Assembly: GCA_038087875.1 (NCBI GenBank)
Contig: CM075991.1
Coordinates: 5,394,001-5,458,000, forward strand
DNA: 64,000 nt
Direction of reading: 5' to 3'
Source of the DNA: Malacoraja senta
Lineage: Eukaryota
The notes under the pieces are model-generated. The model made no database searches. It worked only from the letters and a program-made list of their open reading frames with translations, and was not told the origin of the DNA. The translations under genes and the position numbers were made by a program. Positions within the stretch are counted from its first letter, which is position 1; every line of letters begins with the position of its first letter. Shown piece by piece: positions 9,700-43,876 of this stretch.

Positions 9700-10596
9700 G
9701 CCAGACGGAAACCACTCCTCAGTAAAAGGCACATGACAGCCCGTTTGGAGTATGCCAAACGGCACCTAAAGGATTCTCAGACCATGAGGAACAAGATTCT
9801 CTGTTACGATGAAACCAAGATTTAACTCTTTAGCCTGAATGTCAAGCGTCACGTCTGGAGGAAACCAGGCACCGCTCATGACCTGGCCAATTCCTTACCT
9901 ATGGTGAAGCATGGTGGTGGCAGCATCATGCTGTGGGGATGTTTTTCAGTGGCAGGAACTGGGAGACTATTCAGGATCGAGGGAAAGATGAACGGAGCAA
10001 AGTACATAGAGATCCTTGATGAAAACCTGCTCCAGAGCGTTCTGAACCTCAGACTGGGGCGGAGGTTCAACTTCCAACAGGGCAAAGACCCTAAGCACAC
10101 AGCCAAGACAACGCAGGAGTGGCTTTGTGACCAGTCTGTGAATGTCCTTGAGTGGCCCAACCAGAGCCCGGACTTGAACCCGATCGAACATTTCTGGAGG
10201 GACCTAAAAAATAGCTGTGCATCGATACTCCCCATCCAACCTGACAGAGCTTGAGAGGATCTGCAGAAAAGAATAGGAGAAATTACCCAAATACAGGTGT
10301 GCCAAGCTTGTAGAATCATACCCAAGAAGACTGGAGGCTGTAATCGCTGCCAAAGTTGCCTCAACAAAGTACTGAGTAAAGGGTCTGAATACTTATGTAA
10401 ATGTGATATTTCAGTTATTTCTTTTTAATATATGGCAAAATTTCTAAACACCTATTTTCACTTTTTTATTATGGGTATTGTGTGTAGATTGATGGTAAAA
10501 AAATGTTTTAATGAATTTAATCCATTTTAGAATAAGGCTGTAATGTAACAAAATGTGGAAAAATTGAAGGGATCTGAATACGTTCTGAATCCACTG
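9700..10596 (+). mobile_element. Tc1/mariner DD34E transposon, 5'-truncated and inactive
   Basis: VKHGGGSIMLWGCF...WPNQSPDLNPIEH. The second catalytic Asp is mutated (FQQGKDPKH) and there is a stop after DETKI. The right TIR ends CACTG|TA at 10596. Confidence 0.92.
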
Positions 10597-16304: not shown

Positions 16305-16930
16305 CCGAAGAAGGGTCTCGACCCCAAACGTCACCCACTCCCTCTCTCCAGAGATGCTGCCCGTCCCACTGAGTCACTCCAGCATTTTGTCCACACGGTT
16401 TAAATCAGCATCTGCAGTTCCTTCCTGCTAGTTTCACTGCCCTCCTGGTTAATTTTACTCCCTGTCACCTTCCACTTCTTCTTCTTTCGTGTGGCGTGCA
16501 CAGCCTAAAGTTGGAGGACAACTTGTTCTATTTGATCTTCTGTTTGTGCACGTCGAGTTGATTGCATTCGTCGAAACAGGGAAGGTTGCAATCTTCCACC
16601 CCACCTTCCTCTCAGCCAACGACGTTTTCCTTGATCAGCGTCTGTTTTGATCTGTCGTGTTCACACTTCACGCATCCACATGTCTCCAGTCTCCCTCTCC
16701 CCTCACTCTCAGTCTGAAGAAGGGTCTCGACGCGAAACTTCACCCATTCCTTCACTCCAGAGATGCTGCCTGTCCCGCTGAGTGTCTCCAGCATTTGTGT
16801 CTATCTCAAGTTTCCTTCTCCCCAGACCTTCCACTGAAGAAGGGTCTCGACATGAACCATCACCTATTCCTTCTCTCCAGAGATGCTGCCTGACCCGCTG
16901 AGTTACTCAGGCATTTTGTGTCTATCTTAA
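16305..16930 (+). mobile_element. Three tandem Penelope pLTR-derived units
   Basis: GAAGAAGGGTCTCGAC..AAAC..CACC..TCCAGAGATGCTGCC at about 16305, 16714 and 16834. Confidence 0.75.
16474..16602 (-). mobile_element. Short (GAA)n-tailed retroposon with an internally deleted HDV-like ribozyme head
   Basis: TSD (C)ACCTTCC at 16466-16473 and 16602-16609. Tail CACACGAAAGAAGAAGAAG. Head GGGGTGG AA GATTGCA ACC TTC CCT G TTTCGA CGAA TGCAATC. Confidence 0.75.
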
Positions 16931-17785
16931 GAGTTAATGGTGTTTTTTTCCTGGACTTGGCTCAGCTTCGTGCACCTCCAAAGCCGAAGAACCAAAGCGA
17001 TTTGTGGGAAATCATTTTATTCTTCCTCCGTGATCTACAGTGCGCTGAATGCAAAGGCACATGAATCGGAATCAAAGGGAACTTTTCAAAGGGAATTGGA
17101 TAAAGACTGGCTAAAGAAAGGGGTGTGTAGGAAGGAACTGCATATGCTGGTTTTCCAAAGATAGATGTACTGCAGCAAGTATCCCAATCAGTTGCCTGGA
17201 ACGGCAGTTCCAACACACAGGAACGGAAGAGGCTGCAGAGAGTGGTGGTCTCAGCCTGGTCCATCACCGTAACAGATGTCTCCACCTTCGAAAACATCTA
17301 CATGAGATGCTGCCTCAAAAAGGTGGCATCTGTCAACAAGGTTCCCAACCAATAGGTTAAGGTCCTCTTCTCGCTACTGCCTTCAAGCAAGAGGTACAGA
17401 AGCCCGAGGTCACACACCACCAGGTTCAGGAAGAGCTACCTTCCTACAACTATGGATAGGGAAGATTTAGAAAGATATGGGCCAAATGCAGGCAGGTGAA
17501 ATGGAGCATCTTGGTTGGCATGGGCAAGTGGCCTGTTTCCGTGCTGTTAATTGAATTGTTTAAATTAATTTAAACAATGAACCTGGATTAAACTAGAGTA
17601 CATTTCTGTTAATCTAGCACTGTGAAGGAACCGAGACTTGGGTGAGTGGAAAGGAGCAAGGGGTGGCCACGGCCTGGTCCATCACAAGTACTAACCTCCC
17701 ATCATCGAAGGGATCTATAGAAGGGATCTGCTTCAAAAAAGGCACTCATGTTTTTTTTTATTTAGTGAACTTTTTTGGTTTATGA

Positions 17786-18119
17786 TGGCGCAATGGGCTA
17801 AGTGTTCGGCTGGCAACCGGAAGGTAGCCGGTTCGAATCCTGCTTGGAGTGCATACTGTCGTTGTGTCCTTGGGCAAGACACTTCACCCACCTTTGCCTG
17901 CGTGTGAATGTGTATGAGTGATTGGTGGTGGTCGGAGGGGCCGTAGGTGCAGATTAGCAGCCACGCTTCCGTCAGTCTGCCCCAGGGCAGCTGTGGCTAC
18001 AGAAGTAGCTCACCACCACCGAGTGTGACTGAGGTGTGAATGAATAATGCGATGTAAAGTGCCTTGAGTATTAGAAAGGCGCTATATAAATCCCATCCAT
18101 TATTATTATTATTATTATC
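17786..18119 (+). mobile_element. tRNA-derived CORE-type SINE (AFC-like) with an L2-type tail
   Basis: A box TGGCGCAATGG, B box GGTTCGAATCC, CORE-like GTGTCCTTGGGCAAGACACTT, tail GTAAAGTGCCTTGAG..AAAGGCGCTATATAAAT(ATT)n. TSD TATGA. Confidence 0.85.
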
Positions 18120-18499
18120 TATGAGTTCTATACTTACAGACATGTTAGGCTGCTGCAAGTAAGAAATTCATTGCCAGAGGAGGTAGTTGAGGCTGGGACT
18201 ATCCCAACATTTAAGAAACTGTTAGACAGGTACATGGATAGAACAGGATTAGATGGCTATGGACCAAACACAGGCAGGTGGGACTAGTGTAGCTGGGACA
18301 TGTGTGGGAAAGTTGGGCCAAAAGGCCTGTTTCCACACTGTATCTCTATGACTCTAGGTGGGACTAGTGCAGATGGGACATGTTGGCCAGCGTGAGCAAG
18401 TTGGGCCAAAGGCTATGACATTATTGTTTCATTTTTGGTACATGTGACAATTAAACATTCTTGAGTTTTGGATTTACCATTGGAGAGAGAGTAAAACAG

Positions 18500-20095
18500 A
18501 TCCAAAATCACAGATGCTGGCACACTCCCAGAGATAGTGGCCAAGTGGAAGTGCGCTCCGAGACAGACAACAAACACACTCCCATGGTAATTGTGCAAAT
18601 GTTGACACATTCAGAAAGGGCAAAGCTCGATGACATATATCCAGAAACAGTTGTGAATACCAGTGAGAGAGAGAGATCATAAGTAACAGTAGACTTGCTA
18701 GATAAAGCGCAAACAGTGGCAAACGCCCAGAGAGAGGACAAACACTGGCACACTCTCGGGGGGAGGACAAACAATGGCGCACCCTCAGAGAGAAGTCAAA
18801 CACTGGCACAATCTCAGAAAGAGGACAAATACTGGCGGACACACAGAGGGAAGACAAACATGGTTGCACGCAAGAGGACAAACAATGGGGCACACCCAGA
18901 GGGAGGACAGACCAAAGGTACTAGAGGAGCCTCTAGTATCTTTGGGACAGACACTGGCACATGCATGGAGGGAGCACAGACTCTAGCGCACCCCAGAGGG
19001 AACATAGACACTAGCGCACCCCCAGAGGGAGGACAGACACTGGCACACTCCCAGAGGGATGACGAACACTGGCTCATTTCCCAGAGGGGAAACACAAATA
19101 CAATCCCCGAGATTGCAAATACCAGGACATTCAAAGGAAAAATGGTCACATTTCTGGCAAGTTCTCAGAAGGAGTCCCCCCCCCACAAATACTAACACAC
19201 TCCCATTTCATGAAAATACTGGCACATAATCATGGAATGGACAAAAGAATACTGACTCTGTAAGAGAAAACACACAGATACTGGCACACTCCCAGACTGT
19301 GACCACAAACACTGACACAATCCCAGATAAAGACCACAATTACTTGCACATTCATAGAGAGACCGCAAATACTAGAAGACTCCAAGAAAGACTGTGAATG
19401 TACATGTCCTTCCAGGAAGAGCACATAGGTTGATAAACGCTCAGCGGGTGTGTGTGAATGCCAAAACACTCCCGGAGGGTGTGAGTTAAAACAAACACTC
19501 CAAAGGTAATATGTAGGTACTGACACATTCCAGGAGAGGGTGCAAATATTAGCAATTCCAACAGTGATCCCGGAAGTACGGGCACACTGCCAGGAAAAGA
19601 CCACAACTATTCACATACACACATTGGAGGGACTGCAAATACTGAACACGCCCAGTGCAGATGTGTAAATAGTGACACACTCCCTTAAGATGTGCACAAG
19701 TACCGACTTACTCCAGAGAGTGGGCAGGTACTGGCACACTTCCACAGCGTGGGCATGTATGCTGCAACAGAGTGGATGACTACTGACATATTCGCAGAAA
19801 GGCAGCACAAATGCTGCCAAACATCTCAAAGCAGCCAATTGCCGACACATTTCCAAAGCAAGTGTTCAAATACTAACACACACTCAAATACTAACAAGCT
19901 CTCCTGGAAAGAACCCAACAAGACAATCGCACTTCTGGAGAGAAATTGCAAATACTATCACATTCCTGGTTGGACTGTAAATTAAGACAAACTGCTGGAG
20001 AGAATTCACACTGACTTACTGACTTACCTCATGGTGTGAAAGAATGCTGATATTCCTGGAGGGTGCGCATAAATGTTGACACACCCTTAGTATGT
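18500..20095. repeat. Decayed minisatellite array with a period of about 29 bp (resumes at about 21370-21490)
   Basis: Consecutive units such as CAGAGAGAGGACAAACACTGGCACACTCT, CGGGGGGAGGACAAACAATGGCGCACCCT and CAGAGAGAAGTCAAACACTGGCACAATCT. Confidence 0.8.
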
Positions 20096-20110
20096 GTGAA
20101 TAAATAAAGT

Positions 20111-20324
<214 letters not shown>

Positions 20325-20329
20325 ATGTA

Positions 20330-20987
20330 CCAGACTAAGTGGGACCCGTTGGGTCCCATGTTCACATGAACGGCTGGTCCCCCAATGCAATATTCCACCT
20401 CTCCTCTAATTCCAATATTGCTGGCCAGGGGGGAGGGGGGGGGGGTTCTGGAGCGCTAGTGTGGGTGTTATGGGCCGAAGGGACTGGTTTCCAGAGGGCT
20501 AGTATGGACATTGTGGGCCGAATGGATTCTTGGGCTGGCAGCTCAGTCACTCAGGCCTGGTGGGCTGGCAGCTCAGTCACTCAGACCTGATGGGCTGGCA
20601 GCTCAGTCACTCAGGCCTGGCCGAAGTGACAAAAAAAGTGATTCACAGCTTAGAATCCCAGTTGTGGCCTCTCCCTCGCGATCTTCCAGAGTGACTGACT
20701 CATGTCCAGGCATCCAGGGTTTTATAGTCCTGCCCCCCACAGAAGGAGCGTTATCTTCATCATGGTGATTGACAGGTGAGAGGACCAATCAGCTGATCTC
20801 AAGATTTTTTAAACATTCATAACTTTTTTCTTTTTCATCGATCTGAAAAATCCTCTGAGCTGCCTCAGCGGAGGAGGACTGTGAGTAAGATGGCCAAAAA
20901 TCATAGCGATATATGGTAGCATTTTTTCTAAAATCAATATACAGCGCAGACAGGAAGTGGTCAAGATGAGACTTTTAGTTATATAGA
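20330..20987 (-). mobile_element. Complete non-autonomous Helitron-like element
   Basis: Minus strand A|TCTATATAAC... hairpin GGGACCC-AAC-GGGTCCC (20341-20357) ...CTGG|T. Inserted at an AT site with no TSD. Contains 3 x 30-bp internal repeats. Confidence 0.82.
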
Positions 20988-21000
20988 TTAACACAAAAAG

Positions 21001-21325
21001 GGCAGCCACAGTGGCGCAGCGGTAGAATTGCTGTCTTACAGCACTTGCAGCGCTGGAGACCCGGGTTCAATCCCGACTACAGGTGCTGTCTGTGCGGAGT
21101 TTGTACATTGTCCCTGTGACCGCGTGTGTTTTCTCCAAGATCTTCGGTTTCGTCCCACACTCCAAAGAAGTACACGTATTGTATGTAGGTTAATTGGCAT
21201 GGTGTATGTGTAAATTGTCCCTAGTGTGTGTAGGATAGTGTTAATGTGGGGGGGATTGCTGGTCGGTACGGACTCGATGGGCCGAAGAGCCTGTTTCCGT
21301 ACTGTATATCTAAACTAAACTAAAC
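21001..21325 (+). mobile_element. HE1-like V-SINE, full length (other copies at about 23782-24091 -, 26350-26560 -, 26752-27010 -, 27065-27285 +, 28660-28960 -, 38848-39140 -, 54405-54732 -)
   Basis: tRNA head (GTGGCGCAGCGGTAG, GGTTCAATCCC), V-domain (GGAGTTTGTACATT..CCCACACTCCAAAGA), CR1-like tail GGGCCGAAG..CCTGTTTCC and (CTAAA)n. Confidence 0.85.
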
Positions 21326-22144
21326 ATGTGCATAACACATGTGTTTATATATGTATATATTAACAAGTGTTAATCTACTCCCAGAGTGGGCACAAATGCT
21401 GCCACACTTCCAGACAGACTGTGAAAATACACATTCTGGCAACTTACAATCTCCAGAACTTTTGTAAATGATAAATACACCTTCCGAGAAGTTTTATTAC
21501 ACAAAGCTGTTTTCTATGCATTTTGCAATGAAACAGGATAAAGGACGTTCATATATAACAAGTAGGATCAGGAGAAGACCATTCTGCCTTCATGCCTGCT
21601 TTGATATTCAATAAGAATTTAAATATTTCATTTCACTGCAGGTAAGAATTTCATTGTTCCATTTCAGCACATATGACAATAAAACACTGTTAACTCTCGC
21701 TTGAGATCATGAATGATCTTATGCTTCAGGGCTACTTTCCTGTGTTAATCCATGTCCCTTCATTTCCAGAGTCTCCAAACAAATCTCAATCTCTTTTTTT
21801 GAATATACTCAATGACCTTGGTGGGTATATAGAACAAGCTACTAGAGGAGATAGTTGTGGCAGGTGCTATAAAAGACACTTGGATAGGTACATGGATAGG
21901 ATATGGCCCAAATGCTAGTTAATGGGACTAGCGTAGATGGAGCATCTTGGTGGCATGAATGAGTTGGGACATTGGACCTGTTTCCTTGCTGAATGATTCT
22001 ATGATTCTATGGCACTGGTCACATAATCATTCATTACATTCATAATCACTACTCCCCACTCCCCACCTTTCATCAGTCGCTATCCCAGAAATTAATATGG
22101 TAAACCTTTGTGGTATCCTGACTATGTTAGAGGGTAGCTGAACA

Positions 22145-23192
22145 CAGTTCCAGCTCCATCTTTCAATTTGCTGATGACTCCACCGTCGTCATTAGCACCA
22201 TTGCTCTCAATGTCAGTAAGACCATGGAGTTGATTGTTGACTTTAGAAGAGGAAAGCACAGGAACCACAAATTGTCTTCATTGAGGAGGTCAGAGGTGGA
22301 GAGAGTCAATAACAGTTGCAGGGCATGCATTTCTCTGAAGGTCTGTTGTGGACCCAGCACATTGATGCGATCATTAAGAAAGCCCAACAACATCTCTATT
22401 TCCTCAGAAGATTGAGGAGATTCGGTATGTCAATGATTACTCTCTTGAACTTATATTGGTGTATGGTGGAGAACATATTTACTGGTTGCATCATGGCCTG
22501 GTTCGGCAACTTGAACCCCCAGGAACGAAGGGGATTAAAAAAGTAATGAACACTCACAGGGCATGGGTACTGTCCTCCCCACTATAGAAGAGATCGCTAA
22601 GAAGTGCTGCCTCAAAAAGGCAGCCAGCATGATCAAGGACCCACATCACTCTCTTATTTCACTCCTGCCATCAGCAAGAAAGTACAGGATTCTGAAAACT
22701 GTGACTTCCAGGTTCAGGAACAATTTCTTTCCAAGAACTATCTAGCTATTGAACACTACAAACACCAGCAAAACGTTGAACTACGAAATGTCTTGGTTGC
22801 ACTACGGACTTTGGACATTTGTGATGCACTGATATTGTTTTTTTTTTATTTATTGAACTTTTTTTTTGTTTGTTTATCATGTTATCTATTGAGCACTGTG
22901 TTTACGGACCTGTTGTGCTGCTGCCTGTCCCACTTGGGCGTCATTTGCGCGTCATTTACGCGACATCCTAAAAATTGGTTGGCGCGTCGTGATGTGCGCG
23001 TAAAACGAGCATGATGCACACATGGCGCGTGGTGAGGCGTGGTGGCATATGCAGTGACGCGCGGTAGCGCGCGGCCCCCCAGGATTTTGGGATGCTCAAT
23101 ATCCACGCTCGCCACCTGCGTGATGCGCAAATAACGCCCAAGTGGGACAGGCCACTTGGTACATTTGACAATTCAAACACTCTTGACTTGAC
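22145..23192 (+). mobile_element. Decayed Rex1/Babar-like LINE 3' portion
   Basis: FADD at 22167-22178, ELIVDFRR, KKAQQHLYFLRRLRRF, and a TCTTGACTTGAC tail. Confidence 0.85.
22923..23152. mobile_element. MITE related to the 1592-1888 element, inserted in the LINE tail
   Basis: TIRs GCCTGTCCCACTTGGGCGTCATTTGCGC / GCGCAAATAACGCCCAAGTGGGACAGGC. Confidence 0.75.
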
Positions 23193-26100
23193 TCACGTAC
23201 TAGGAGACAACTGCACTCTGAGATTCATTGTGCAAAACCACACTGTGGTTTCTCTGCCTCCTCTTTTTAAAAATTAATTAAGAAGTTCTTGTCATTCAAC
23301 TGAACTTCAATGACTCCAAATGAAGAGGTGAGGAGGTCACAGTTGCCATTATAAAGGGAGGCCCCCACTTTGTTTACCTGAAGAGTACCCACCCTGACAG
23401 GAATGTTAACGATGATAGATAATTGCAGGGTTTTCTTTTCAAACTTTCAGTAGTCATATTAAATGTGTGTAAGAGTTAAGGTTCAATCAGATTTTTTGGT
23501 GGTGTAGTGAATAAAAGTGAATAAGGAGGCGGTAAATTTTATTATAATTTTTGATGCTGTTTCTCTTCAGATTTTCCTTCATAACCTTTGCATCTCTAAC
23601 TCTTGCCCTCACATCAAAGCATTAAACTTGATGAGTGATGCTGATCACTGAGTCTACAGCAGATTGATCTAGCGTTCTTAATTCTATACAGATTTATATT
23701 GAAACGGAGACAGAAGCAGAGTGGGATATGCTTTGAGTGTCTAGAAATGATTCTGTTTCATGAGGATCATGAGGTGAGGCATTTAGTTTAGTTTTTAGTT
23801 TTGAGATTCAGTGCAGAAACAGGCCCTTCGGCCCACCGAGTCCGCACCGACCAGCCATCCCCGCACATTATCACTATCCTACGTACTAGGGACAATTTAC
23901 ACTTAAAGCAAGCCAATTAACTTACAAACATATATGTCTTTGGAATGTGGGAGGAAACCGAAGATCTTGGAGAAAACCTACGCGGTCACAGGGAGAACGT
24001 ACAAACTCCATACAGACAACACCCGTGGTTGGGATCGAACCCGGGTCTCCGGTGCTGCAAGGTGGCAACTCTACTGCTGCGCCACCGTGCCACATTTGAA
24101 ACATAAAATGGCAAACAATGTCCCAGCAAAATCATTTCAGGAAAGAAGTTTGTAAATCACAAGTCTATGGTGCAATGTCAAGGTTAGGAAGCCTGCATTT
24201 GAATATGATTGCTGTCAAAGCCTGACGACACATCCTGTCGGAAACGAGCAGTCAAACCTGATTTATGTTGTATCTTGGGAGGTGCTATCTGACCATTTAT
24301 TTCCATATTACAACAGTTCCCATATTTCACAAGCAATTCATTGTCCCATTTATTTTCCTCTATGAAAGTTGAACTTTGATAATGGTGGATTTTATTTTCC
24401 CACATCTTTCATTCCCACAGAGTCTTTTACCCAGAGTAGGGGAATCAAGAGCCAGAGAATATAGATTTAGATAGAGTGGAGGAAGATTTAATAGGAGCCT
24501 GAGGGGCAACTTTTTCACACAGATGGTGGTGGGTATGTAGAACTAGCTGCCAGTGGCGGTAAGTAGGAACTACAGATGGTGGATTACACCAAGGATAGAC
24601 ACAACATTCTGGAGTAACTCAGTGGGTAAGGCAACATCTCTGGAGAAAAGGAATAGGTGACGCTTTGAGTCTAGACGCTTCTTCAAAATGTGAGTCAGAG
24701 GCTCTCAGTCTGAAGAAGGGTTTCGACCCGTAACATCATGCGAGATGGTTGTCAGTTCAGAGAATTAAGCACAAAGCCCAGAGTGACATTTTGATGCAGT
24801 GCTGGAGGATTGTTGATGTAGACGAGGCACTAGATTGGTACGAGGTCTGCCCTATGCCGTATCCAGTGAGCATTCACTCAAAAGGGTGCAAAAACAAACT
24901 GCTGGAGGAATTTGGCAGGTCAGGCAGCATCTGTGGGGGGAATGGACAGACAATAATTTGGGTCGGGACCCTCCTTCAGACTGGTTGGAGTAGGGAGGAG
25001 ACTGGAAAAGAAAGGTGGGGGCAGGGTAGCTTGGTAAATAACACAGGTGGGGGGGGGGGTTGTTTGGAAGTTGGGTGGAGTAAGTGGCAATGGTCACAGG
25101 TAAAAAGGAGACTAAAAGGTCTTAGATAAGGGGAGAAAAGTCGCAGTGAACTGTAATGCCACTGAAAAGGATATGGCTGTAAGAAAGGAAGGGGAAAGAG
25201 TGGGGATAAAAGAGAAGTGGGGGACTCGATGGGAGATGAGTGTACAAAGAATGGGAAAGAAGGAAGGTGACGGAGGGGTGGGGGGGGTGAGAGATGGTGG
25301 GTGAAATGAGTTGGGAGAGACAACAGGAAGGAGAGGGGAGATATAGAGGTATTACTTGAAATCGAAAGGTGTGCAAGGCTGCTTTCCACATTTTTCCAAT
25401 CAACATATATCTATCAACTAACATAACAAAATCTCAAAAGACTAATCACTCATCAAACAAGGATCTCACAATCCTTGCTGTAACCAAAGTGAGAATCCCA
25501 TGCGCAAAACACAAAGTGCTGGAGAAACTCAGAGGGTCAGGCAGCATCTATGGAGGGATGGATAAACGATGTTTCAGGTCAGAACCCTTCTTTGGGCTGA
25601 CATTGTTCCCAACCTGAAATGTTGTCTTATCTATTCCCACTATGGATGCTGCCTGACCCGCTGAGTTTCTCCAGCACTTTGTCTTAGGCTCACAATTCCA
25701 ACATCTGCAGCCTCTTGCTTCTCCTAACCCTGTCATGCATTACAACATTTAAAAACCTTAACAGCTTGGAGATAACTGAAAATTATGATAGTACATCAAA
25801 ATAAATGCACATTTATTGTTAAGATACTTTTTACATCAACGTCATTGGGTTGCAATGTTGGAGGAGGCCATTCAGCCCAAGTGACCGTTTAACTCTCAAC
25901 CTCCTCCTAGCCTCTCTGTCAGCACATCCTCCCGTTCCTTTCTCATGAACTTCCTTTGATTCCCCTGAAATGCATTATTCTTGTTCACTTCAGCCTCTCC
26001 CTGTGTGATCAAGTGCTAGATATGTCCCACTCCCTAGTTTCTCTGGAATTCCCTGTTGGGTATATTAGTGACTCTCCTACATATCCACCCCCAGGTTTAA

Positions 26101-28054
26101 CCTGCACACACGTAGAAACATGCCTCCTCTACATTATTGGAACATCCTCAGTCAGCTCATTCCTCAGCCACCTCTGTCCCAGAGATTGTGCAAGGGTTCT
26201 TAATAGTTGCGGACACACCAAGGTGCGTTTATCCCCAGTGTGAAATTAATCCTAAATAAACAGTTGGCACAAGATGGTAGCTGCAAATCTGCTGTGGTTT
26301 ATGATAAGCTCGTGCTGTACCTGGCTGACTTAGGATCTGGTCTGAGGCCTTAGTTTAGTTTAGCTTAGACATACAGTGCGGAAACATGCCCTTCGGCCCA
26401 CCGAGTCTGCACCGACCAGCGATCCCTACACATTAACACTACCCTATACACACCAGGGACAATTTTACATTTATACATTTCTACCAAGCCAATTAACCTT
26501 CAAACCTGTATGTCTTTGGAGTGTGGGAGGAAACCGAAGATCCCGTAAAAAAGGTCACAGAGAGAACTTGACAGAAAGCAGGTCAGAGTGCATCACCAAA
26601 ACAGGTTAGGGCAGTAGTGTGGTAAGAAGGTTGGGCTCTCGGTGGGTGGGACTCAGATGATGCACTTCAGTACAGGATTGAATCAATTCAGTGTGCCACT
26701 GAGAGAAAACCATGCTGCTGGCAGCAAGCGAGAAAATCATAAAGGGGCTTCAGTTAGTTTAGTTTAGTTGAAAGATACAGCGTGGAAACAGGCGCTTCGG
26801 CCCACCAAATCTGCGCCAACCAATGATCACCCATACATTAATTATATCCTACACACTGGAGACAATTTACAGAAACCGATTAACCTACAAGGCTGCACAC
26901 CTTTGGGGTGTGGGATGAAACGGAGCATCCAGGAAAAAAATGATGTGGTCACAGGGTGAACGTACAAACTCTGCAGACAAAGCACCCGAGGTCAGGATCG
27001 AACCTGGTTCTAAGGCAGCAACTTCTGGAGAAAACGCTTGCAGTCACAGGGAGAACGGTTCTTGTCCGTACGGAGTTTGTACGTTCTCCCCGTGACCTGT
27101 GTGGGTTTTCCCCGAAGTCTTCGGTTTCCTCCCACACTCCAAAGACGTACAGGTTTATAGGTTAATTGGCTTGGTATAAATATAAATTGTCCATAGTGTG
27201 TGTAGGACAGTGTTAGTGTGCGTGGATCGCTGGTCGGTGCAGATTCAGTGGGCCAAAAACCCTGTTTCTGTGCTGTATCTCTAAAAACAAAAACAAAAAA
27301 ACAAAAAGCTTGCCTTGTATAAATACTATTTCAATAAGAAGGGACATTTATTCTTCTGTAAGTAAAACAAGTTATTTGAATCTTTTCTTAACATCAACTT
27401 ATAGGAAATGTTATCAGAGATATGTTTGGAATGCATTTCTAGGGCAACATGCAATTGGATGGGTGACTCATTAATTGGTGCTGTTGTTAGTATGGCTGAT
27501 TTAATGAGATGGTATTGAAGCCTGAAGGTATTTTCTAATGAAGAAAGCAAGCAAGAAATAGACAAATTATTGTCATTCCCAGATTGAGAGCAAGATTACC
27601 TCAGTACATGAAGCATAAATAACATGTTTTCATCTCCCTGCCATTGTGATCAGAGGAAAAAATATTAATCTTTCTTTAATAATTAAGCATGATTTTGTTT
27701 TAAATTAATTTCCTCAGAGCTCATATTTGCAATTCAAGAAATAAACAGCTTGTCTTGGTAAATGTGACTGTGAGATTGTTGGAACAGTTGTTTATAGTTA
27801 TTTGTTCGCATGATGCAACCATCACCAGCATTTAAGCCCATTTACCACTCATTATCTGTTGAACTGAGCGACTTGCTCCATCACTTCAAAGGGATATTAA
27901 GAGTCACTCAACAAAGGGCTCTGGAAATGCATAGAGTCTAGCTTCTGTAAGGATGGCTAATGTTGAGGGAAGCACGTTGGCACAATTAATGGAGCTGCCG
28001 TGTCACAGACACAGCAATCACGACCTCCAGTGCTGCCTTTGTGGTGCCTGGAAC

Positions 28055-28580
28055 AACCTGATCTTTCGGTTGCTAAACACTTTAATTCTCCATCCCATTC
28101 CCACACTGACCTTTCTGTCCTCAGTCTCCTCCATTGTCACATTGGAGGAACAGCATCTCATATTTTGCTCGGGCAGCTTACAGCCCAGTGGTATGACTAT
28201 TGATTTCTCTCACTTCAAGTATCCCCAGCATTCCCTCCCTCTCTAACCCTCCCCCACCCAAGTCTCACCAGTTTCTCATTTTCACCCAACGAACAGCTGT
28301 TTCCTTTATCATCGTTACTTGTTTGCATATCTTTCATTGAAGACAATGACAATAAAGTTGAATCAAATCGTCAAATCAATCTTTCATTCATTGTTCTTTA
28401 TCTCTCCACATCATCATCTCTCATTTCCCTTTTCCCTACCTGGTGTGAAGAAGGGTCTTGACCCGAAATGTCATCCGTTCCTTCTCTCCAGAGATGCTGC
28501 CTGTCCCCCTGCTGAGTTACTCCAGCTTTTTGTGTCTATCTTCGGTTTAATCCAGCATGTGTAGTTTCTTCCTACACATG
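28055..28580 (+). mobile_element. Penelope-like element 3' end: GIY-YIG C-terminus plus pLTR
   Basis: VAKHFNSPSHSHTDLSVL..LEEQHLIFC.GSLQPSGM.IDFS, followed by the hammerhead-bearing repeat at about 28445. Confidence 0.85.
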
Positions 28581-29029
28581 GTGTTTGCATCTACCCTCTG
28601 CATGGGTTCCTCCTTAGGCTCCTGCTTCCTCCCACCTCTCAAAGGTATGAGGGGTGTTTTGGAGATACAACGTGGGAGCATGCCCTTTGACCCAACGAGT
28701 ATGCGCTGACCAATGATCACCCGTACACTAGCTCTACGTTATCCCAGTTTCGCATCCTGCACACTATGGGCAATTTACAGATACCAATCAATCCACAAAC
28801 CTGCACATCTTTGGAATGTGGGAGGAAACCGGAGCACCTAGAGAAAACCCATGCAGTCACAGGCAGAATGTACAAACTCCATACAGACAACACCCGTAGT
28901 CAGGATTGAACTCAGGTCTCTGGCGCCGTAAGGCTGCAACTTTACCGCTGCGCCACTGGGCAGCCCTAGGGGGTAGGTGAATAGGCCACTGTAGGCGAAA
29001 AGGCCATTTTCTTTGCTGTATGCCTACTC

Positions 29030-29870
29030 CATCACTGATGGAGACGAGTCAGAGTATAGAAGTGAGATCGACCGACTGACCAAATGGTGCCAGCACAATA
29101 ACCTGGCCCTCAACACCAGCAAAACCAAGGAACTGATTGTGGACTTTGGAAGAAGTAGGATGGGGACCCACAGTCCCGTTTATATCAACTGGTCGATGGT
29201 GGAAAGGTTCAAGAGCTTCAAATTCCTGGGCGTGCATATTTCCGATGATCTCTCCTGGTCCCAGAACACTGATGCAATTATAAAGCAAGCACATCAGCGC
29301 CTCTACTTCCTGAGAAGATTACGGAGAGTCGGTATGTCGAGGAGGACTCTCTCTCGAACTTCTACAGGTGCACAGTGGAGAGCATGCTGACCGGTTGCAT
29401 CGTGGCTTGGTTCGGCAACTTGTGCTCCCAGGAGCGGAAAAGACTGCAAAAAGTTGTAAACACTGCCCAGTCCATCATTGGCTCTGACCTCCCTACCATT
29501 GAGGGGATCTACCACAGTCACTGCCTCAAAAAGACTGGCAGCATCATCAAGGACCAACACCATCCTGGCCACACACTCATCTCTCCACTGCCTTCAGGTG
29601 GAAGGTACAGGAGCCTGAAATCTGCAACAACCAGGTTCAGGAATAGCTACTTCCCCACAGCCATCAGACTATTAAACTCAAACAAAATCTGAACTTTATA
29701 TGTTTATTTATGTGTGTGTATATATATATTCAATTGTATTTGGACACAATGATCTGTTCTGTATTATTTATGTCTGCAATATTCTGTTGTGCTGAAAGCA
29801 AAGCAAGAATTTCATTGTCCTATCTGGGACACATGACAATAAACTCTCTTGAATCTTCAATCTTGAATCT
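29030..29870 (+). mobile_element. Rex1/Babar-like LINE 3' fragment, same family as 31932-34228
   Basis: ITDGDESEYR..WCQHNNLALNTSKTKELIVDF..., near-identical to the 707-aa ORF. (TCTTGAA)n tail. Confidence 0.9.
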
Positions 29871-30265
29871 CTAAACTAACCTAAACTTCCCCCGAAGAGT
29901 AGACACTTTGTACTGAAGGACCTATTTGCATGCTACATCTCTAATTTAAGCTACTATAAACTGAACTAGACTACATTTCCCCAAAGAGTGGATAAATTGA
30001 GCTGAAAGGCTTGAATCCAAGGGTACTTGATGGGAACGCAGGGAGAATGCAGTAGGAATAGTGTAAATGAGTGATTGATAGTGGGCACTAACTCAATGAA
30101 TTGAAGGGACTGCATTCTGCTGACTCTCCATAATTATGTGAGATCCTAAGACATAGGAGAAGAATTAGGCCATTCGGCCCATCGAGTTAGCTCTGCCATT
30201 CGATCATTCCTGATCTTTTTTTCTCACTCAATCCCATTCTCCTGCTTTCTCCCCATAACCTTTAA

Positions 30266-30461
30266 ACTTCTTCTTTCGTGTCCATCTTCCATGTTTCAAA
30301 TGTTGACATCGCTGTCATCGTCCGTCCTGAAAAGGACGCAAGCTTCCGGCGACAATCAGTGGGAGCCATCACTTGTTGCAATAGATGATGGTGGTCGCAA
30401 AATTAGCTCGGGATACTTCCAGTTTCCAGCCCCGCGACGTGGATGCTTCTGCCATGGGGCC
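30266..30461 (-). mobile_element. Short (GAA)n-tailed retroposon headed by an HDV-like ribozyme
   Basis: TSD CCATAACCTTTAA at 30253-30265 and 30460-30472, inside a CR1 tail. 3' end GGACACGAAAGAAGAAG. Confidence 0.85.
30397..30461 (-). ncRNA. HDV-like self-cleaving ribozyme candidate (65 nt)
   Basis: GGCCCC AUG GCAGAA GCA UCCACGU CGC GGGGCU GG AAACUGGAAGUAUCCCGAG CUAA UUUUGC. P1 with a G1-U wobble, P2, P3 (one A-C mismatch), P1.1 CC/GG, and C-U-A-A in J4/2. Confidence 0.75.
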
Positions 30462-31931
30462 ATAACCTTTAATACCCTTACTAATCAATCTACGCTTTAA
30501 AAATACCCGATGACCAAGCCTCCACAACTATCTGTGGCAATGAACTCCACAGATTCACCACCCTCTGGCTAAAGAAATACCTCCTCATCTACATTCTAAA
30601 GGTACGTTCTTTTATTCTGCTACTGGCAACATCCTCTCCTTTTTTTTTTTCACTTTAGTCTTTATTGCAACATCCTCTCCACACCACTTCTATCTAGGCC
30701 TATCATTTTTCGGTAAGTTTCAATGAAATCCCCCCCTTTTCTCCATATTTTTTTCTTGCTTCAAGAGGCTCCAATGAACCGGATGTTTTTTTACATGGTG
30801 GTTATCATTACTGAGTTTCAATTCCAAATGTATGTATTCACGTACCCAAATTCCTCTGCTGCTGTGGTGGGATTTGAATTTGGTCTTGGAGCAACCATGC
30901 AGAGTCCAGTATAATTGACCAGGAAGCTAACATATCCAGCATTCTATAAGCTACGAACCAGGTAAATATCCAGATGTTGTTTCCTCAGGCAGAAGAGTCT
31001 GGATCTTGAGTAAGGAGTCAGCCATTTAGGATTGGGGTGAGATTTCTTCACTCAGTTGAGAAAATTCCAAATCCTCTGCCAGGTTTTAGTTCAGTTTGTT
31101 TCATTTATCGTCACGTGTACTGAGATACAGTGAAAAGCATTTTGTTGCCTGCTATCCAGTCAGATGGAAGACTATAAGTGATTGCAATCGAGTCATCCAC
31201 AGTGTACAGATACAGGATAAAGGGAGTAATGTTTAGCATGCAATAAAGTCCAGTAAAGTAATTTAGGACATCCTGTTTGTTAAACGAGGATCCCAACCTG
31301 AAACATCACCTATCCATGTCCTCCAGAGATGCTGCCAGACCCGCTGAGTTAATCCAGCAGTTTGTGTCTTTTTTTTGTAAACCAGCAGCTGCTGTTCTTT
31401 GTTTTTCCTTATCCAGTAATGGTTAAGAATGACACTGATGTACAGTTTTCCTACATTATAGATCATTGTTACGAATTGGAGTAATGTGCAGTGGCAATGC
31501 ATGGTGTATGTATATGCAATACAAACGCAGAACTTTTTTGTGGCATCATATTGTTTGCATTGGAGCTTCTGTTCTAAAGTACTGCCATTGTAAATTGCTG
31601 GAGTGCTGTGTGGTGTAATGAATTAGAATGACACGTCACAATGCACTGGAGCGACAAGTTGTTGTATGCTGCACCAACAATGTAAGCACCCCAGGGTGCT
31701 AACAAAACTGCTAAACATGGTGCCACAATTCACAACTCAAGGCTCTGTCAAAGCTGGAAATTGAGATTAGGTACTTTCCTGTAGGGCGCAAGAAAAACTT
31801 CAACCCACACTTATTCCTGTTTGACAATTACGTATTTAACAATTCAGTGTCTGAATTCCCTTCAGCTGCAGTTAGTGTGTCTCAAGTGTTACCAGGGGGT
31901 CTGCTGTAGTCCAACAAGTCCTACTCATTCA

Positions 31932-34228
31932 AGTCAAGTCAAGTGAGTTTATTGTCATGTGTCCCTGGTAGGACAATGAAATTCTTGCTTTGCTTGAGCA
32001 CAACAGAACATAGTAGGCATTTACTACAAGGCATTCTATAAATATATACACAATGGTCAATATACTGATAACGTGCAAATAACAGTATTGGCTAGTAAAG
32101 TTCAGTGTTATGTCCGAGCCAGGTTTAATAGCCTGATGGCTGTGGGGAAGTAACTGTTCCTGAACCTGGTCGTTGCAGTCTTCAGGCTCCTGTACCTTCT
32201 ACCTGAAGGTAGTAGGGAGATGAGTGTGTGGCCAGGATGGTGTGGGTCCTTGATGATGCTGCCAGCCTTTTTGAGGCAGCGACTGTGGTAGATCCCCTCG
32301 ATGGAAGGGAGGTCAGAGCCGATGATGGACTGGGCAGTGTTTACTACTTTTTGTAGTCTTTTCCTCTCCAGGGCACTCAAGTTGCCGAACCAAGCCACGA
32401 TGCAACCGGTCAGCATGCTCTCTACTGTGCACCTGTAGAAATTAGAGAGAGTCCTCCTTGACAAACCGACTCTCCGTAATCTTCTCAGGAAGTAGAGGCG
32501 CTGATGTGCTTTCTTAATAATGGCATCATTGTTCTCGGACCAGGAAAGATCTTCAGAGATGTGCACGCCCAGGAATTTGAAGCTCTTGACCCTTTCAACC
32601 ATCAACCCATTGATATAAACGGGACTGTGGGTCCCCATCCTACTCCTTCCAAAGTCTACAATCAGTTCCTTGGTTTTGCTGGTGTTGAGGGCCAGGTTGT
32701 TGTGCTGGCACCATATGGACAGTTGCTCGATCTCTCTTCTATACTCTGACTCATCACCATCAGTGATACGTCCCACAACAGTGCTAATTGTTATCGAGTC
32801 TGACACATTTCCACCAATACGAACAGACTGTGGTCTGAGAGTGAGGAAGTCGAGGATCCAATTGCAGAGGGATGCGCAGAGACCCAGTTCTGCGAGTTTG
32901 GTAACCAGCTTGGAGGGGATGATTGTGTTAAATGCCGAGCTATAATCGATGAATAACAGCCTGACATATGAGTTTTTGTTGTCCAAGTGGTCCAGAGCGG
33001 AGTGGAGGGCCAGCGAGATCGCATCCACCGTTGATCTGTTGCGGCGGTAAGCGAACTGCAGTGGGTCCAGGTTTTTGTCGAGGTAGGAGTTGATCTGCGT
33101 CATGATCAACCTCTCAAAGCACTTCATCACCACAGGCGTTAGTGCCACAGGTCGATAGTCATTGAGGCACGTTACCTTACTCTTCTTGGGCACTGGTATA
33201 ATTGATGCCCTTTTGAAGCAGGTGGGGACCTCAGACCTCAGAAGTGAGAGGTTGAAAATGTCTGTAAAAACTCCAGCCAGTTGGTCCGCACAGGTTTTTA
33301 GAACGCGACCAGGTATACCATCAGGTCCAGGCGCTTTTCGAGGGTTCACCCCTCTGAAGGATTTCCTGACATCGGCCTCTGTGACTGAGACTGAAATACC
33401 GTCACAGCGAATGGGGGCTCGGCAAGGCACATCGGTGTTCTCCCTATCAAAGCGTGCGTAAAACGCATTGAGCTCATCAGGGAGTGATGTTTCGCCGACA
33501 TTCGAGCTGCCTCCAGATTTCGCCTTGTAAGAGGTGATTGCATTCAGGCCCTGCCACAGCCGCCGAACATCAGTCTCTTCCTCCAGTTTGGAGCAGAAGT
33601 CCCTTTTGGCCTTTTTGATGGCCTTACCAAGGTCGTATCTGGACTCCTTGTAGGCCACTGTATCATCAGATATGAATGCCCGGTGTCTGGACTTCAGAAG
33701 AGTGCGGATCTCAAAGTTCATCCAAGGTTTCTGATTGGGAAACGCTCGGAAGGTTTTGGTGGGGATGCAGTCCTCCACACACTTCTTAATGAAGTCTGTA
33801 ACGACTGTGCCGTATTCGTTCAGGTCCGTTGCCGAGTCCTTGAACATTGCCCAGTCTACAGACTCCAAACAGTCCTGGAGTTGTTCCTCTGCCCTCCCCC
33901 CCGACCAGCTCTGTACTGTCCTCACCTCTGGGGGTGTGCTCTTTAATTGCTGCCTGTAGGCAGGAAGAAGCAGCACCGCAGTATGGTCGGATTTACCGAA
34001 GTGAGGGCGAGGGATAGAGCGATAGGCATTCTTGATGGTGATGTAGCAGTGGTCGAGGGTGTTTGATCCTCTGGTGCAGCAGGAGACATGTTGGTGGAAG
34101 TTAGGGAGTGATTTCTTTAGGTTTGCCTTATTGAAGTCCCCGGCTATGGTGGTAAACACCTCGGGGTAAGACGTCTGATGTTTGTTGACCACGGCGTGCA
34201 GCTCCCCCAGTGCCAGACGGATGTCTGC
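31932..34228 (-). mobile_element. Young Rex1/Babar-like LINE, 5'-truncated, with an open ORF2 that lacks the RT catalytic core
   Basis: 707-aa ORF with IAGDFN, SDH, APGPDG, YRPVALT, DPLQFAYR, LFIDYSSAFN and KKAHQRLYFLRRL. (TTGAC)n tail. Candidate TSD CATTCA at 31926-31931 and 34229-34234. Confidence 0.93.
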
Positions 34229-37200
34229 CATTCATCGAGAAATGCTAACTTTTCACGAGGATCATACCCACCTAATTTCATATTACTGTCAGTTACAATA
34301 TTCCTCGAGAATATCCCAGAGCATTCTATGCTGTGAGTTTAAGAAAATTGTCTCCCCATCTTACCTTTATGTTGTCCTTTGTTTGCTGATGTTTCTTCAT
34401 CTCTCTCTCTCTCTTCCTTTCTCTTTCTCTCTCGTTCTTTCTCTCTCCCCTTTCTCTCCAACTCTCTCTCTTCTTTTTGCTCTCTCCTTTCTCTCCCACT
34501 CCCATTCTTCTCTCCTCTCTCTCTCTTGCTTTAGAGTATTTTATATAAACATACCAGCATACTCAGAGAACACAGAATAGGATATCAGAATAGTATAACC
34601 CAACATTTTCTCAGCGCATGTTAAAGCAGGAGGAAGAGACAGAAGGTTTAGTGAGGAATCTCAGCATGCAGCAATATTGTTTATTTTAATCACAATTATA
34701 AAATAATGTCTTGGATAGGTATTGAAGCCTTTAGTGAAGCAATGGAAATTTAAAACAAAAAGTTTAAATTATTTAATGATTACTGTCCAATAATGTTCTG
34801 AAGAGGTAGAGACAAAGTCTACAGTGAATTCCCAGAGTATTTTAAAACCAGTGTGAAGGAGAAACCTCTTTGATTAAATGGATTGAAAGTTAATAAATCC
34901 TCTGAGACAAATTAGAAATAGATTCCAGTGTGCAGCAGAAAGTCTTTAAGAAGGAACTGCAGATGCTGGAAAATCGAAAGTAGACAAAAGGACTGGAGAA
35001 ACTCAGCGGGTGCAGCAGCATCTATGGAGCGAAGGAAACAGGCAACGTTTCGGGCCGATTCATTGCCTATTTCCTTCGCTCCATAGATGCTGCTGCGCCC
35101 GCTGAGTTTCTCCAGTTCTTTTGTCTACCTGCAGAAGAAAGTCTCTGGACACTGGTGGTAAAGCACCGTGCAGGGACTCCACTGCAATGATAGCAATCAA
35201 TGAAACATTACAAGCAACCAGTAACACACTGCGCCAGTGACGTATGTGCACAGTTTAAAGGGCTTTGAGACATTCAGAGATCAGAATAAATGCTGCAAGT
35301 CTTGTTTTTTACTAACATCAGATGAGCATTTAAAAGAAAAGGAAATGTTAATACGCTCAATTAAAGGTTCCACAATACAATGACCTGAAAGCGGTAACTA
35401 ATCATGGAATTGCCACCATTGAATCCTTTGGGTAAGTTACTATTGACACAGACAATTTGTCCAATTATGTAGCCTAGTTCAACTGAGTAAAAGTCTTTCA
35501 AGGATTCACATTTTTCCATGTGAAAAATGAAAACCAACAAATCACGCAACCTCGGGGAAAAAAAAGTTAAAATGAAGAAACAGTCAACTGCAGGAAAACT
35601 GAGAGAGATGTGGTATTAATATGGGGAGGGACTGCAAATTATGTTTTGCAGTACTTTTTAAATTATGCAGATTAGCAACCATTTATCAGCTTGAAGGCAA
35701 CTACAACTGTGGTGAAGGAGGACACATTTTATAGGAATCTGAGGAGTAACTTTTTCACACAAAGGGTGGTGGGTGTATGGAACGAGCTGCCAGAGGAGGT
35801 CGTTGAGACAGGGACTTATGCAACGTTTAAGAAATGATTAGACAGGTATAGGGATGGGACACATTGAGGTTTAGAGGGATATGGGTCAAATGCAGGCAGG
35901 TGGGACTAGTGTAGATGGGACACATTGGTCGGTGTGGGCAAGTAGGGCCGAAGGGCCTGTTTCCATGCTGTATGACTCTATGACTATAACTGCTGTTTAT
36001 ATAACCAGTCATAACATGGTAAAATATATAAACCTGAAGTGTAATGAGAAGGAATTCCAGACCAAACTAGGGCATTACTCAAGTTCCCCAAATCAGATTT
36101 ATTTTTATGATGTAGTGAAGGTTCAAATCTGCACAGCTTTGTTCAAGAACTGAATAAATACATTATCTGCAAGTGGAACAGAATAATTACATTTCGGGAA
36201 AGATCAGAGGGAAGTTGGGACTTGCATGATTTGCTTTGAAAGAGACAGTACAGAATAAATGGGCCAAAGGGTCTCCTTCTTTGCTGTCATTCCCTTAAAG
36301 CTTGGTCAAATAGCGAGCTGTTGTGGAGGAAAGAGAAGCAGAGCACTTGAAAGATTTATGAAATGAACGCGAGGGGGCTTTGAGCTGACAAACTATTTAA
36401 TAACTTGCAGAAAGATTTAGTACCTGGGCAGGAAACTAGAAAATAAAAGGAAATAAAATGCAGAGTATTAGGTAAAACAGAACAAAACGCGGTTTTACAA
36501 TAAAGGAGATGAAGCTGGAGAGATAAATGAAGAAACATCGTTACTAGTGAGGAGAGCATGGACAAATCAAATTACAAATAGCCAGTTTGCAGAAGAGCGG
36601 AGTATGTTAATAGTATAATAAAGAGTATTTTGTGATACAAACCCAGATCAAACGTCCGGATCCGTTACAGTTTTGATCATTTGGTTTAAAAAATACTTAT
36701 GTTGGAGGGTGTAAGCCAAAGTACACCAGAATTGTCCCAAAGCCTGATGTGGATGTTCCATGAGGAAGAAACAGAGATATTTAACTCTGCAATCTAAAAG
36801 GAGACTCCTCCTTTAGACTTTAAATGACAATAGACTGGATGACTTAAATAAAGTTGGTGGGAAATAAATTTAAGAAAGCTATTAGGGGAAAGTATCCCAT
36901 GGAAAGCATAATTTCAGTAATCTGCCAAACAAAATATAGAAATCAAAGCTGTAAGTATTATTCACATTGGTGTGGATTATTTGTCCTTAATGCAAGAACC
37001 AACGTTAGGGTTGAAGCATCCTTCTCCCACTATTGCCATTGACGGAAGGGTTGAGAATCAGACAATACAAATGTAGCATGCTTGGTGAAAAGACCAAAAA
37101 TGATATGAGGTAACCTTTCCCATGTGTTGGGCATTCACCAAATCTCTGCCAAGCTCTTGATGTGTGTATTTTATTAGTTTATCAGTCTAGTTTATTGTCA

Positions 37201-37919
37201 TGTGTGCCGAGGTACAGTGAAAAGCTTTTTTGTTGCGTGCTATCTAGTCAGGGGAATGATTACAATCAAGCCATCCACAGATACAGGATAAAGGGAATAA
37301 CGTTTAGCCAGTAAATTCCAATTAAAGATAGTCCGAGGGTCTCCAAGAGGTGGATAGTAGCTCAGGATTGCTCTCTAGTTACAGATAGGATGGTTCAGTT
37401 GTCTGATTACAACAGGGAAGAAACTATCTCTGAATCTGGAGGTATGTCTTTCCATTTCCTGCATGGAGTATTCTTGCCACCATGGCTTGCAATAATAAAA
37501 CTCTGCTTTAATAAGACTAAATTTATGCTGTATCCACCACAATCTCAGCATATTCTTCATTATCTTTCTACCTGGCTTTCCTAAGGTAATTCAAATAACA
37601 ACAAATCGTATATAACTTTTACTATGTGCCAATTTATACATGCTTGAGCTCCACAATATGTTATGAAATTCAGTAAATAATTAAAGGCCTTTATGTTCAG
37701 CGTATGTTAAATTGTTCCACAGTATTATGAAACCAACTTTACATTGAGTGAATTTTTTTTAGTCCTCCTCTTGAAAACTAAATTTGAAACTCTCCTCTCG
37801 AGATTGCAGTTACTCTTCATCAGACATTTTAGTTAATTTTATGAGGCAATAAATAAGTCTTTAAAGTGAATGGTTAAGCAAAGGCTCACTACAATCCCAA
37901 GAATCAATTTTATCGGATC

Positions 37920-38088
37920 TTCTTCTTCTTCTTATCGAGTCCACACACAAGATTAGAAGTTGTTCAGCCAGAGCTGAACACACTTCTCGGCATCTGCACA
38001 ATGGTGTCTGTCTTGTCGCTTCTTGTGCGTGGTGGTGGAAAGATTGGTGGAAACGGGGCCGCGACGTGAACTCTCTTTCCTTGACCCC
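37920..38088 (-). mobile_element. Short (GAA)n-tailed retroposon headed by a minimal HDV-like ribozyme
   Basis: TSD CAATTTTA(TC/AA)GGATC at 37905-37919 and 38088-38102. Tail GGACTCGATAAGAAGAAGAAG. The body ends in a possible LINE ORF C-terminus (ADAEKCVQLWLNNF*). Confidence 0.85.
38037..38088 (-). ncRNA. Minimal HDV-like ribozyme candidate without P4 (52 nt)
   Basis: GGGGUC AA GGAAAGA GAG UUCACGU CGC GGCCCC G UUUCCA CCAA UCUUUCC. 6-bp P1, perfect 7-bp P2, P3 with one mismatch. Confidence 0.75.

Positions 38089-42832: not shown

Positions 42833-43876
<1,044 letters not shown>

Follow-up and report, generated by a model that had tools for sequence, protein, structure and literature searches.

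What kind of mobile element begins at the first nucleotide of a ribozyme-like fold and ends in a run of AAG repeats? The question is raised by three short elements in a 64,000-nucleotide stretch of the Malacoraja senta genome (GenBank assembly GCA_038087875.1, contig CM075991.1, positions 5,394,001 to 5,458,000 of the forward strand), which we call the window. An initial annotation, made from the letters of the window, had described them as three unrelated retroposons resembling short interspersed elements (SINEs), each headed by a fold like that of the hepatitis delta virus (HDV) ribozyme. We find that they represent three families (A, B, and C). In every one of them the element opens with G1 of an HDV-like fold, closes with a terminal motif of the type found in Vingi long interspersed elements (LINEs) followed by (AAG)n, and is bounded by 11- to 12-bp target-site duplications (TSDs). 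We consider it likely that, as non-autonomous retroposons, these families rely on Vingi-type LINEs for their mobility and carry predicted self-cleaving heads.

The families are large, and it is at family level that the fold can be read. Head patterns of exact length with up to 3 mismatches, which miss diverged copies and include assembly duplicates, match the 1.94-Gb assembly at 7,164 places for A, 1,230 for B, and 2,341 for C, with no place matched by the reversed-pattern controls. A typical head has a P1 helix with a G1-U wobble, a 2-nt J1/2, a 7-bp P2, a 3-bp P3, an L3 loop of the form U-Y-C-A-C-G-U, one or two Gs, and then C-N-A-A and P2′; between the Gs and C-N-A-A lies a P4 region in B and a 6-nt linker in A and C. 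Intact A heads are 54 nt long, with a 7-bp P1 that includes G1-U, a single C-G P1.1 pair, and no P4; B heads have a 6-bp P1, a P4, and two C-G P1.1 pairs; and C heads are 52 nt long, with a 6-bp P1, a single C-G P1.1 pair, and no P4. Among 73 distinct loci, 71 retain the C at the catalytic position (A, 26/28; B, 18/18; C, 27/27), and all helices, L3, and this C are together intact in 12/28, 7/18, and 16/27 distinct loci of A, B, and C, respectively. The A sample was fetched with the body alone and is blind to the head (30 of 41 listed loci); the B and C samples consist of the loci most similar to the copies in the window (20 of 40 listed loci for B, 30 of 40 for C).

Pairing is retained while letters change. 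Across an alignment of eight SINE and LINE heads, 97.4% of P1 and P3 positions are paired, compared with 45 to 65% in slid registers and a level that none of 500 shuffles reaches, and six of the 10 base pairs vary on both sides; P1 and P3 pairing that the window copies have partly lost is restored at family level, with covariation across families. P2 pairs at 7/7 positions with differing letters in eight of nine parsed heads, and the ninth, mis-parsed by our script, also pairs 7/7 in two other analyses; the three P2 helices of the window copies are as the initial annotation gave them. Kept pairing with freely swapped letters, alongside a loop and a C that do not vary, would be expected if selection acted on a functional ribozyme. 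The proposed covariation of loop and linker (UCC with GG, UUC with G) holds for A, B, C, and most LINE heads and breaks down in one LINE-type head, L116, which has UCC with GU. Outside the heads the families differ, as first described: pairwise scores among the three bodies are equalled by 351, 582, and 925 of 1000 shuffles, and the bodies are therefore mutually unrelated. The reported absence of tRNA promoter boxes stands in that no family has a B box and five scanned loci contain no tRNA gene, and needs amending for one loose A-box-like match inside P2/P3 of family B; an Rfam scan of the elements found neither 5S nor tRNA matches, which argues against SINEs derived from either.

The 5′ ends fall where a ribozyme of this kind would cut. 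When the last 64 nt of A were used as the query, 30/30 loci started at the G1 position, 28 of them with the whole core. A well-scored TSD was found in 85/92 distinct loci, a tally that excludes four rows in which no tail was recognized and another four with incomplete matches; it exactly adjoins G1 in 46/85 and adjoins or overlaps the leading Gs in 70/85, so that the identity of G1 with the element boundary proposed for the window copies extends to their families. These TSDs are mainly 11 to 12 bp long and often have A at the start and T at the end. In all three families together, the base before G1 is T in 52/92 (enriched) and G in 8/92 (depleted), a bias that may reflect nick preference; HDV-type ribozymes also cleave poorly after G. 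Loose ends of family B pile up at G1 in the contigs of two public runs of other samples (170 ends versus 27 and 14 at neighboring listed positions; 251 versus 41 and 38).

In the window itself, all three elements lie on the minus strand and, as first reported, have CG-A(A/T)-(AAG)n tails and TSDs, the latter with perfect cores of 8 to 13 bp. The A copy (16474 to 16602), from a family whose full-length unit is ~137 nt, consists of a P4-less HDV-like head (16560 to 16602; G1 at 16602, catalytic-position C at 16570), a stem-loop body (16490 to 16559), and a terminal motif CACGAA with (AAG)n tail (16475 to 16489) that resembles Vingi-type LINE ends; its TSD (16466 to 16476, partner 16602 to 16612) is 11 bp with one mismatch, 8 bp of it perfect. 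The B copy (30266 to 30461), a two-ended derivative of a Vingi-type LINE by its sequence, has an HDV-like head with P4 (30396 to 30461; G1 at 30461, catalytic-position C at 30406), the start of a Vingi-type open reading frame (ORF; 30304 to 30369) in which an ATG at 30369 opens ~22 codons of endonuclease N terminus before breaking off near 30303, and a 3′ end (30267 to 30303) of ~25 nt followed by GGACACGAA and (AAG)n. Its 13-bp TSD is perfect (30253 to 30265, partner 30460 to 30472), with 2 bp in common with the first GG of the element. The C copy (37919 to 38088) has a P4-less HDV-like head (38037 to 38088; G1 at 38088, catalytic-position C at 38047), the last codons, stop (37955 to 37953), and 3′ untranslated region (UTR) of a Vingi-type ORF (37938 to 37997) homologous to the genomic LINE ends L125 and L127, and a terminal motif CTCGAT with (AAG)n tail (37919 to 37937); its TSD is ~14 to 15 bp with two mismatches around an 8-bp perfect core (37905 to 37912, partner 38088 to 38095).

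The HDV-like parse is complete in family-typical heads and incomplete in these three copies. Copy A has lost 11 nt near 16580/16581, a deletion that begins halfway through L3, takes out P3′ entirely, and runs into P1′; copy B has an A-C mismatch in its 3-bp P3 at 30444; and copy C has an A-G mismatch in its 3-bp P3 at 38072 and a C for U at 38055, by which G1-C replaces G1-U. A strict HDV descriptor finds no match in the window even with 2 mismatches permitted in P1/P2 (0/100 shuffles match at up to 1 mismatch, 1/100 at 2), and none of the three copies reaches the 35-bit cut-off of RF00622, the Rfam model of the mammalian CPEB3 ribozyme, copy B scoring 28.4 bits. Since single changes in P3 of the CPEB3 and HDV ribozymes are strongly damaging, according to the available part of PMC9901934, all three window copies are probably inactive as ribozymes. 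Rfam microRNA matches in the window proved to be simple repeats.

Two side observations concern family A. Deletions of 9 to 15 nt centered on the P3′/P1′ strand occur at 23 distinct A loci with about nine distinct breakpoints (L001 to L030 and L105) in a sample chosen with the deleted copy as query, and at 1/27 loci of the head-blind sample, window copy aside; jumps of the reverse transcriptase (RT) over the folded core are a possible cause. At another locus (L027, 1380 to 1680; G000:C1 near 97.2349 Mb), an older A variant with AGG for ACC in the 5′ strand of P3 is interrupted by an A copy in reverse orientation, which hints at a second A subfamily with its own P3.

We next consider where the families come from. 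The B body aligns with the ORF start of L132, a LINE with a B-type head, at a score of 83 that none of 1000 shuffles attains; the B ORF start also matches that of L118 (1/1000 shuffles), and the last 17 nt of B are identical to the end of the genomic Vingi-type LINE L128. The 3′ part of C matches a Vingi-type ORF end and UTR (0/1000 shuffles), and its head is homologous to a LINE head. Because B holds a LINE ORF start and C a LINE ORF end and UTR, these families are, as judged from homology, internal-deletion (two-ended) derivatives of Vingi-type LINEs. The initial annotation was thus mistaken in calling the elements unrelated, as far as heads and tails are concerned, and in picturing independent SINEs that had each acquired a ribozyme; B and C instead belong to a kind of element already described. 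Family A has the fold, the terminal motif and tail, and the TSD type in common with the LINEs and differs from them in head letters, and by fold, tail, and TSD type it is probably the same kind of Vingi derivative. Comparing six-frame translations of the SINE bodies with LINE termini yielded little information, two N-terminal references being out of frame. L132 itself lies on a bacterial metagenome-assembled genome (MAG) contig and has a eukaryote-type Vingi 5′ end, probably through host contamination.

Autonomous candidate partners, Vingi-type LINEs with (AAG)n tails, exist in this genome. A degenerate head motif was applied to a metagenome collection, viral contigs, and prokaryote genomes, and in the metagenomes it returned eight stretches representing four distinct insertions; in three the head precedes sequence that codes for an endonuclease, and in the fourth no ORF follows. 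The complete LINE L121 measures 3,149 nt from G1 to tail, encodes APE and RT domains by Pfam, shows no RNase H by Pfam in its C-terminal pieces, and ends in GACACGAA, a trinucleotide repeat, and a TSD. With its RT as the query, 149 scored relatives are obtained from this genome at 54 to 67% identity and none from viral contigs. A genomic LINE on contig C8 has the same kind of head and tail as the short families: it is 3,202 nt long, with a 1014-aa frame (only ~255 aa of it beyond the RT match), an HDV-like head (52.6 bits) with five extra head repeats, and a GACACGAA-(AAG)n end. Five LINE 3′ ends, obtained from eight windows, fall into three families, all (AAG)-tailed; three of six sampled 3′ windows missed the element end, and the 5′ window of a LINE on C4794 has an ORF start and no head. 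Among Repbase elements, the 5′ ends of Vingi-2_Gav (3,128 nt long), Vingi-4_Crp, Vingi-1_BF, and Vingi-2_SPur, as printed in the available part of the PMC5786205 supplement, show the same fold by eye, and the printed Vingi 5′ ends are nearly letter-identical to the B head, also by eye. The Ingi- or Vingi-like, GAA-tailed partner suggested by the initial annotation can therefore be narrowed to a Vingi-type LINE, a placement supported by its predicted APE and RT domains without RNase H, its length of ~3.1 kb, and its (AAG)n tail.

Other candidate partners were rejected. A search for an Ingi-type partner through RNase H (PF00075) gave 150 matches, of which the three sampled with long ORFs were endogenous-retrovirus pol genes with integrase downstream; these frames, of 1,180 to 1,338 aa, lie at G000:C1:135722182, C4:58812711, and C3910:127532, and several same-scoring copies of 1,335 aa exist. 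RT fragments in the window and its flanks were likewise set aside, being presumably Rex1/Babar-like or CR1-like. Two further observations concern the LINEs themselves. The head of the autonomous LINE on C8 (L122, G000:C8:937600-937890, minus strand) contains six tandem 26-nt units running from P1 to P3′, each bounded by a self-complementary GATC common to P1 and P1′, which looks like repeated RT slippage at the pseudoknot. Vingi-type RT matches recur every 10 to 18 kb in the small contigs C5101, C2327, C962, C5921, C2790, and C5863, which suggests amplification inside large tandem repeats.

Several observations weigh against deriving all three families from ribozyme-headed Vingi LINEs. No pattern joining the B head to an unbroken ORF matched in the genome search, and at four genomic loci, candidate parents of B (C2459:48768, C1:387928341, C19:9674147, and C11:18950773), protein identity of 70 to 80% to the B-type ORF start extends beyond the B breakpoint. 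For A and C, no exact parent LINE turned up. The label Vingi comes from predicted architecture and head sequence rather than from an RT tree with named references. Shuffle controls, including those for the eight-head alignment, ignore kinship and overstate significance on related sequences, and their counts are not probabilities. One raw RNA run, taken up below, lists no pile-up of read starts at G1. Finally, none of the LINE ends compared, which represent three 3′-end families, matches the A body significantly, and the two A heads submitted to Rfam have no CPEB3 match.

The last two points, together with P1, P2, and P3 letters unlike those of every Vingi head in hand, are what would be expected if family A were a chimera, in which a separately evolved minimal HDV-like ribozyme heads a hairpin body that is unrelated to it and took up a tail of Vingi type. 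The hairpin has a z of −1.7, and 12/200 shuffles are equally stable. Against such an origin, A has the L3, the J1/2 length, the J4/2, and the P4-less build of the LINE-derived family C, and the comparison that failed to place it drew on just three LINE families for 3′ ends and on a single one for 5′ ends. We regard a chimeric origin as rather doubtful, and descent of A from a Vingi-type LINE as the better account.

The heads also resemble a ribozyme known from mammals. CPEB3 is the sole ribozyme family that Rfam reports for them: LINE-type heads score 52 to 63 bits (5/5 over the cut-off), intact B heads 35 to 37 bits (2/2), and two C heads 28 to 30 bits, under the cut-off. L116 agrees with the CPEB3 consensus at 35/37 positions from G1 to the P1.1 G, 25 of which the search motif itself had fixed, and at 10/11 positions at the 3′ end. 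Vingi-2_Gav, which was not found with the motif, matches the Rfam consensus by eye at 34/36 positions, then in the first four P4 letters, and at 14/14 positions at the 3′ end. In the alligator element SINE2-1_AMi, the Vingi portion matches CPEB3 around P4 at 8/8 and 18/18 letters, also by eye. The positions that match CPEB3 are exchangeable, as family A shows.

Such likeness could have arisen by convergence on a fast-folding solution, and there is precedent, in that the R2 and HDV ribozyme cores agree at 21/27 core nucleotides, according to the available part of a review (PMC8256844); for the metagenome heads, moreover, the pre-fixed motif positions account for much of what was compared. The agreement of Vingi-2_Gav is independent of the motif, however, and helix letters could be swapped in CPEB3 mutagenesis, as reported in the accessible sections of PMC9901934, and do vary in family A. 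In addition, the head motif has no match in viral contigs and only one in prokaryote genomes, which is itself a Vingi-type 5′ end and probably host DNA in a MAG. Convergence therefore appears unlikely, and we hold with good confidence that descent of the CPEB3 ribozyme from Vingi heads would be the simpler reading of these sequences. For the fuller proposition, we lean only slightly toward acceptance: that Vingi elements across animals as a rule begin with an HDV-like ribozyme, P4-less forms included, on more than 10,000 short copies here, and that the CPEB3 ribozyme arose by domestication of a Vingi 5′ end that had stayed behind in an intron before the mammal radiation.

Published accounts leave room for this origin. 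The same review, in the part available, reports CPEB3-related ribozymes from sea urchin, lamprey, and lancelet, which may be the very heads described here, not labeled as Vingi. An origin by domestication of mobile elements has been published as a general idea, with no donor named in the accessible text (PMC7761336), and a paper that resurrects ancestral CPEB3 ribozymes contains none of "retro," "transpos," or "origin" in its text (PMC8233481). A literature search that left several primary papers, patents, and Repbase outside its scope returned no published statement of a CPEB3 donor or of a match to Vingi.

How would such heads serve the elements? HDV-like ribozymes cut 5′ of nucleotide +1 and thereby free R2 and L1Tc/ingi RNAs from cotranscripts, as described in the available part of PMC4035085, and by inference from this processing the heads studied here would act likewise. 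A copy would be transcribed within a longer host RNA polymerase II (Pol II) RNA; its head would fold as a double pseudoknot and cut directly 5′ of G1, giving every RNA an identical 5′ end and a nuclease-resistant structure, with A and C using a minimal, P4-less ribozyme. The Vingi endonuclease/RT would then bind the 3′ end in trans, prime at a nick with 1 to 3 nt of homology to the AAG tail, and copy the RNA up to G1. Transcripts bear on the first of these steps. The run index lists no RNA run for family B; one raw RNA run (146 reads, ~6% of a poly(A) library), from an organism that differs from the best DNA-carrying samples, covers B in both orientations. Because 31 of these reads run upstream through G1 into unlike flanks, family B is carried in read-through RNA, as the initial annotation had supposed; it is among the 146 reads of this single run that no pile-up of starts at G1 is listed.

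The head could instead be mainly an internal Pol II promoter that starts at or near G1, like Pr77, in which case it might also cleave or protect the 5′ end, and the elements would not be promoter-less. The L1Tc/ingi head, from the sister clade, is both promoter and ribozyme in the available account (PMC4035085), and the two functions are not mutually exclusive. A promoter predicts 5′ ends at G1 equally well, fits the lack of cleaved 5′ ends in the raw run, and would explain why G1 is still the first nucleotide of no fewer than 23 distinct A loci whose core is deleted. The deleted A copies have many breakpoints and differing body haplotypes, however, as expected if the damage arose during or after insertion and not through the spread of a dead subfamily. 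Families also differ freely in their helix letters and yet retain pairing and the catalytic C, which argues for selection on RNA structure rather than on a DNA motif. We accordingly think it improbable that the head is mainly a promoter and retain self-cleavage as its predicted role. A partner from the RTE clade, the commonest source of two-ended short elements and one with some HDV-like ribozymes (PMC5786205, in the part available), is very improbable, since head, ORF-start, and ORF-end homologies all point to Vingi-type LINEs and the TSDs mostly begin with A, with no upstream T stretch evident, whereas the RTE signature in the accessible text of PMC6007223 is a TSD that begins with T ~10 nt downstream of a T stretch, a pattern said there to vary among animal RTE LINEs.

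The window contains other features unconnected with the three families. On the minus strand, positions 42833 to 45293 hold a zinc-finger gene with three C2H2 fingers, which from its translation we take to be a member of the EGR family, and positions 32108 to 34231 hold a 707-aa open frame of an APE-RT LINE, presumably of the Rex1/Babar type, with several shorter relatives elsewhere in the window. A transposase fragment at 9826 to 10424 is, by its translation, presumably Tc1-like.

ORF-less two-ended Vingi derivatives (Vingi-1_EE) were reportedly described by Kojima in 2011. As presented in the available part of PMC5786205, the Vingi-1_EE families are likewise short and ORF-less, keep both Vingi LINE ends, and occur as several families per genome; the heads of A, B, and C add a full HDV-like fold, P4-less in two families. 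The trypanosome elements RIME, NARTc, and SIDER, with their Pr77/L1TcRz head, are also internally deleted and carry an HDV-like ribozyme that cuts at +1 (PMC4035085, in part); Ingi is the sister clade of Vingi, and the present elements differ in having an animal host, another sequence family, and an (AAG)n tail, with promoter activity shown for Pr77. The R2 SIDEs (PMC3414825) are reportedly also short, ribozyme-headed, and internally deleted. Alligator SINE2-1_AMi, in the available part of the PMC5786205 supplement, has a Vingi 5′ end of the same fold and a GGACACGAAA end motif like that of B, with a tRNA head upstream of the Vingi part that A, B, and C lack; its 3′ end, which that supplement labels unknown, is similar to the Vingi-type motif that terminates B and the LINEs. 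Compared with CPEB3, a single conserved mammalian intronic copy, the heads here sit on thousands of mobile copies; A, C, and most LINE heads have a single C-G P1.1, as CPEB3 does. The minimal HDV-like ribozymes drz-Mtgn and theta are P4-less, like the 52- to 54-nt heads of A and C; they come from metagenomes and phages and have an origin that the available text of PMC10879173 calls undetermined, while the A and C forms head vertebrate retroposons. Our search, with several primary papers, supplements, patents, and Repbase outside its scope, found no published link of Vingi heads to HDV-like ribozymes and no report of P4-less forms heading vertebrate retroposons. Two-ended Vingi derivatives are thus known already, and what may be new is the ribozyme head of Vingi, its P4-less forms, and the link to CPEB3.

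If this reading is correct, Vingi joins the ribozyme-headed LINE clades, and the CPEB3 ribozyme, which is linked to memory, would gain a concrete and testable origin, with a donor named for the best-studied human ribozyme. Vingi-1_Acar UTRs serve gene-writing platforms, according to the accessible part of PMC13708176, and a self-cleaving 5′ end would affect template design. The ~10,700 family heads, with and without P4, constitute a set of natural variants that includes minimal P4-less forms on vertebrate retroposons, and many of these heads are potentially able to cut host pre-mRNA where they lie in sense in introns.

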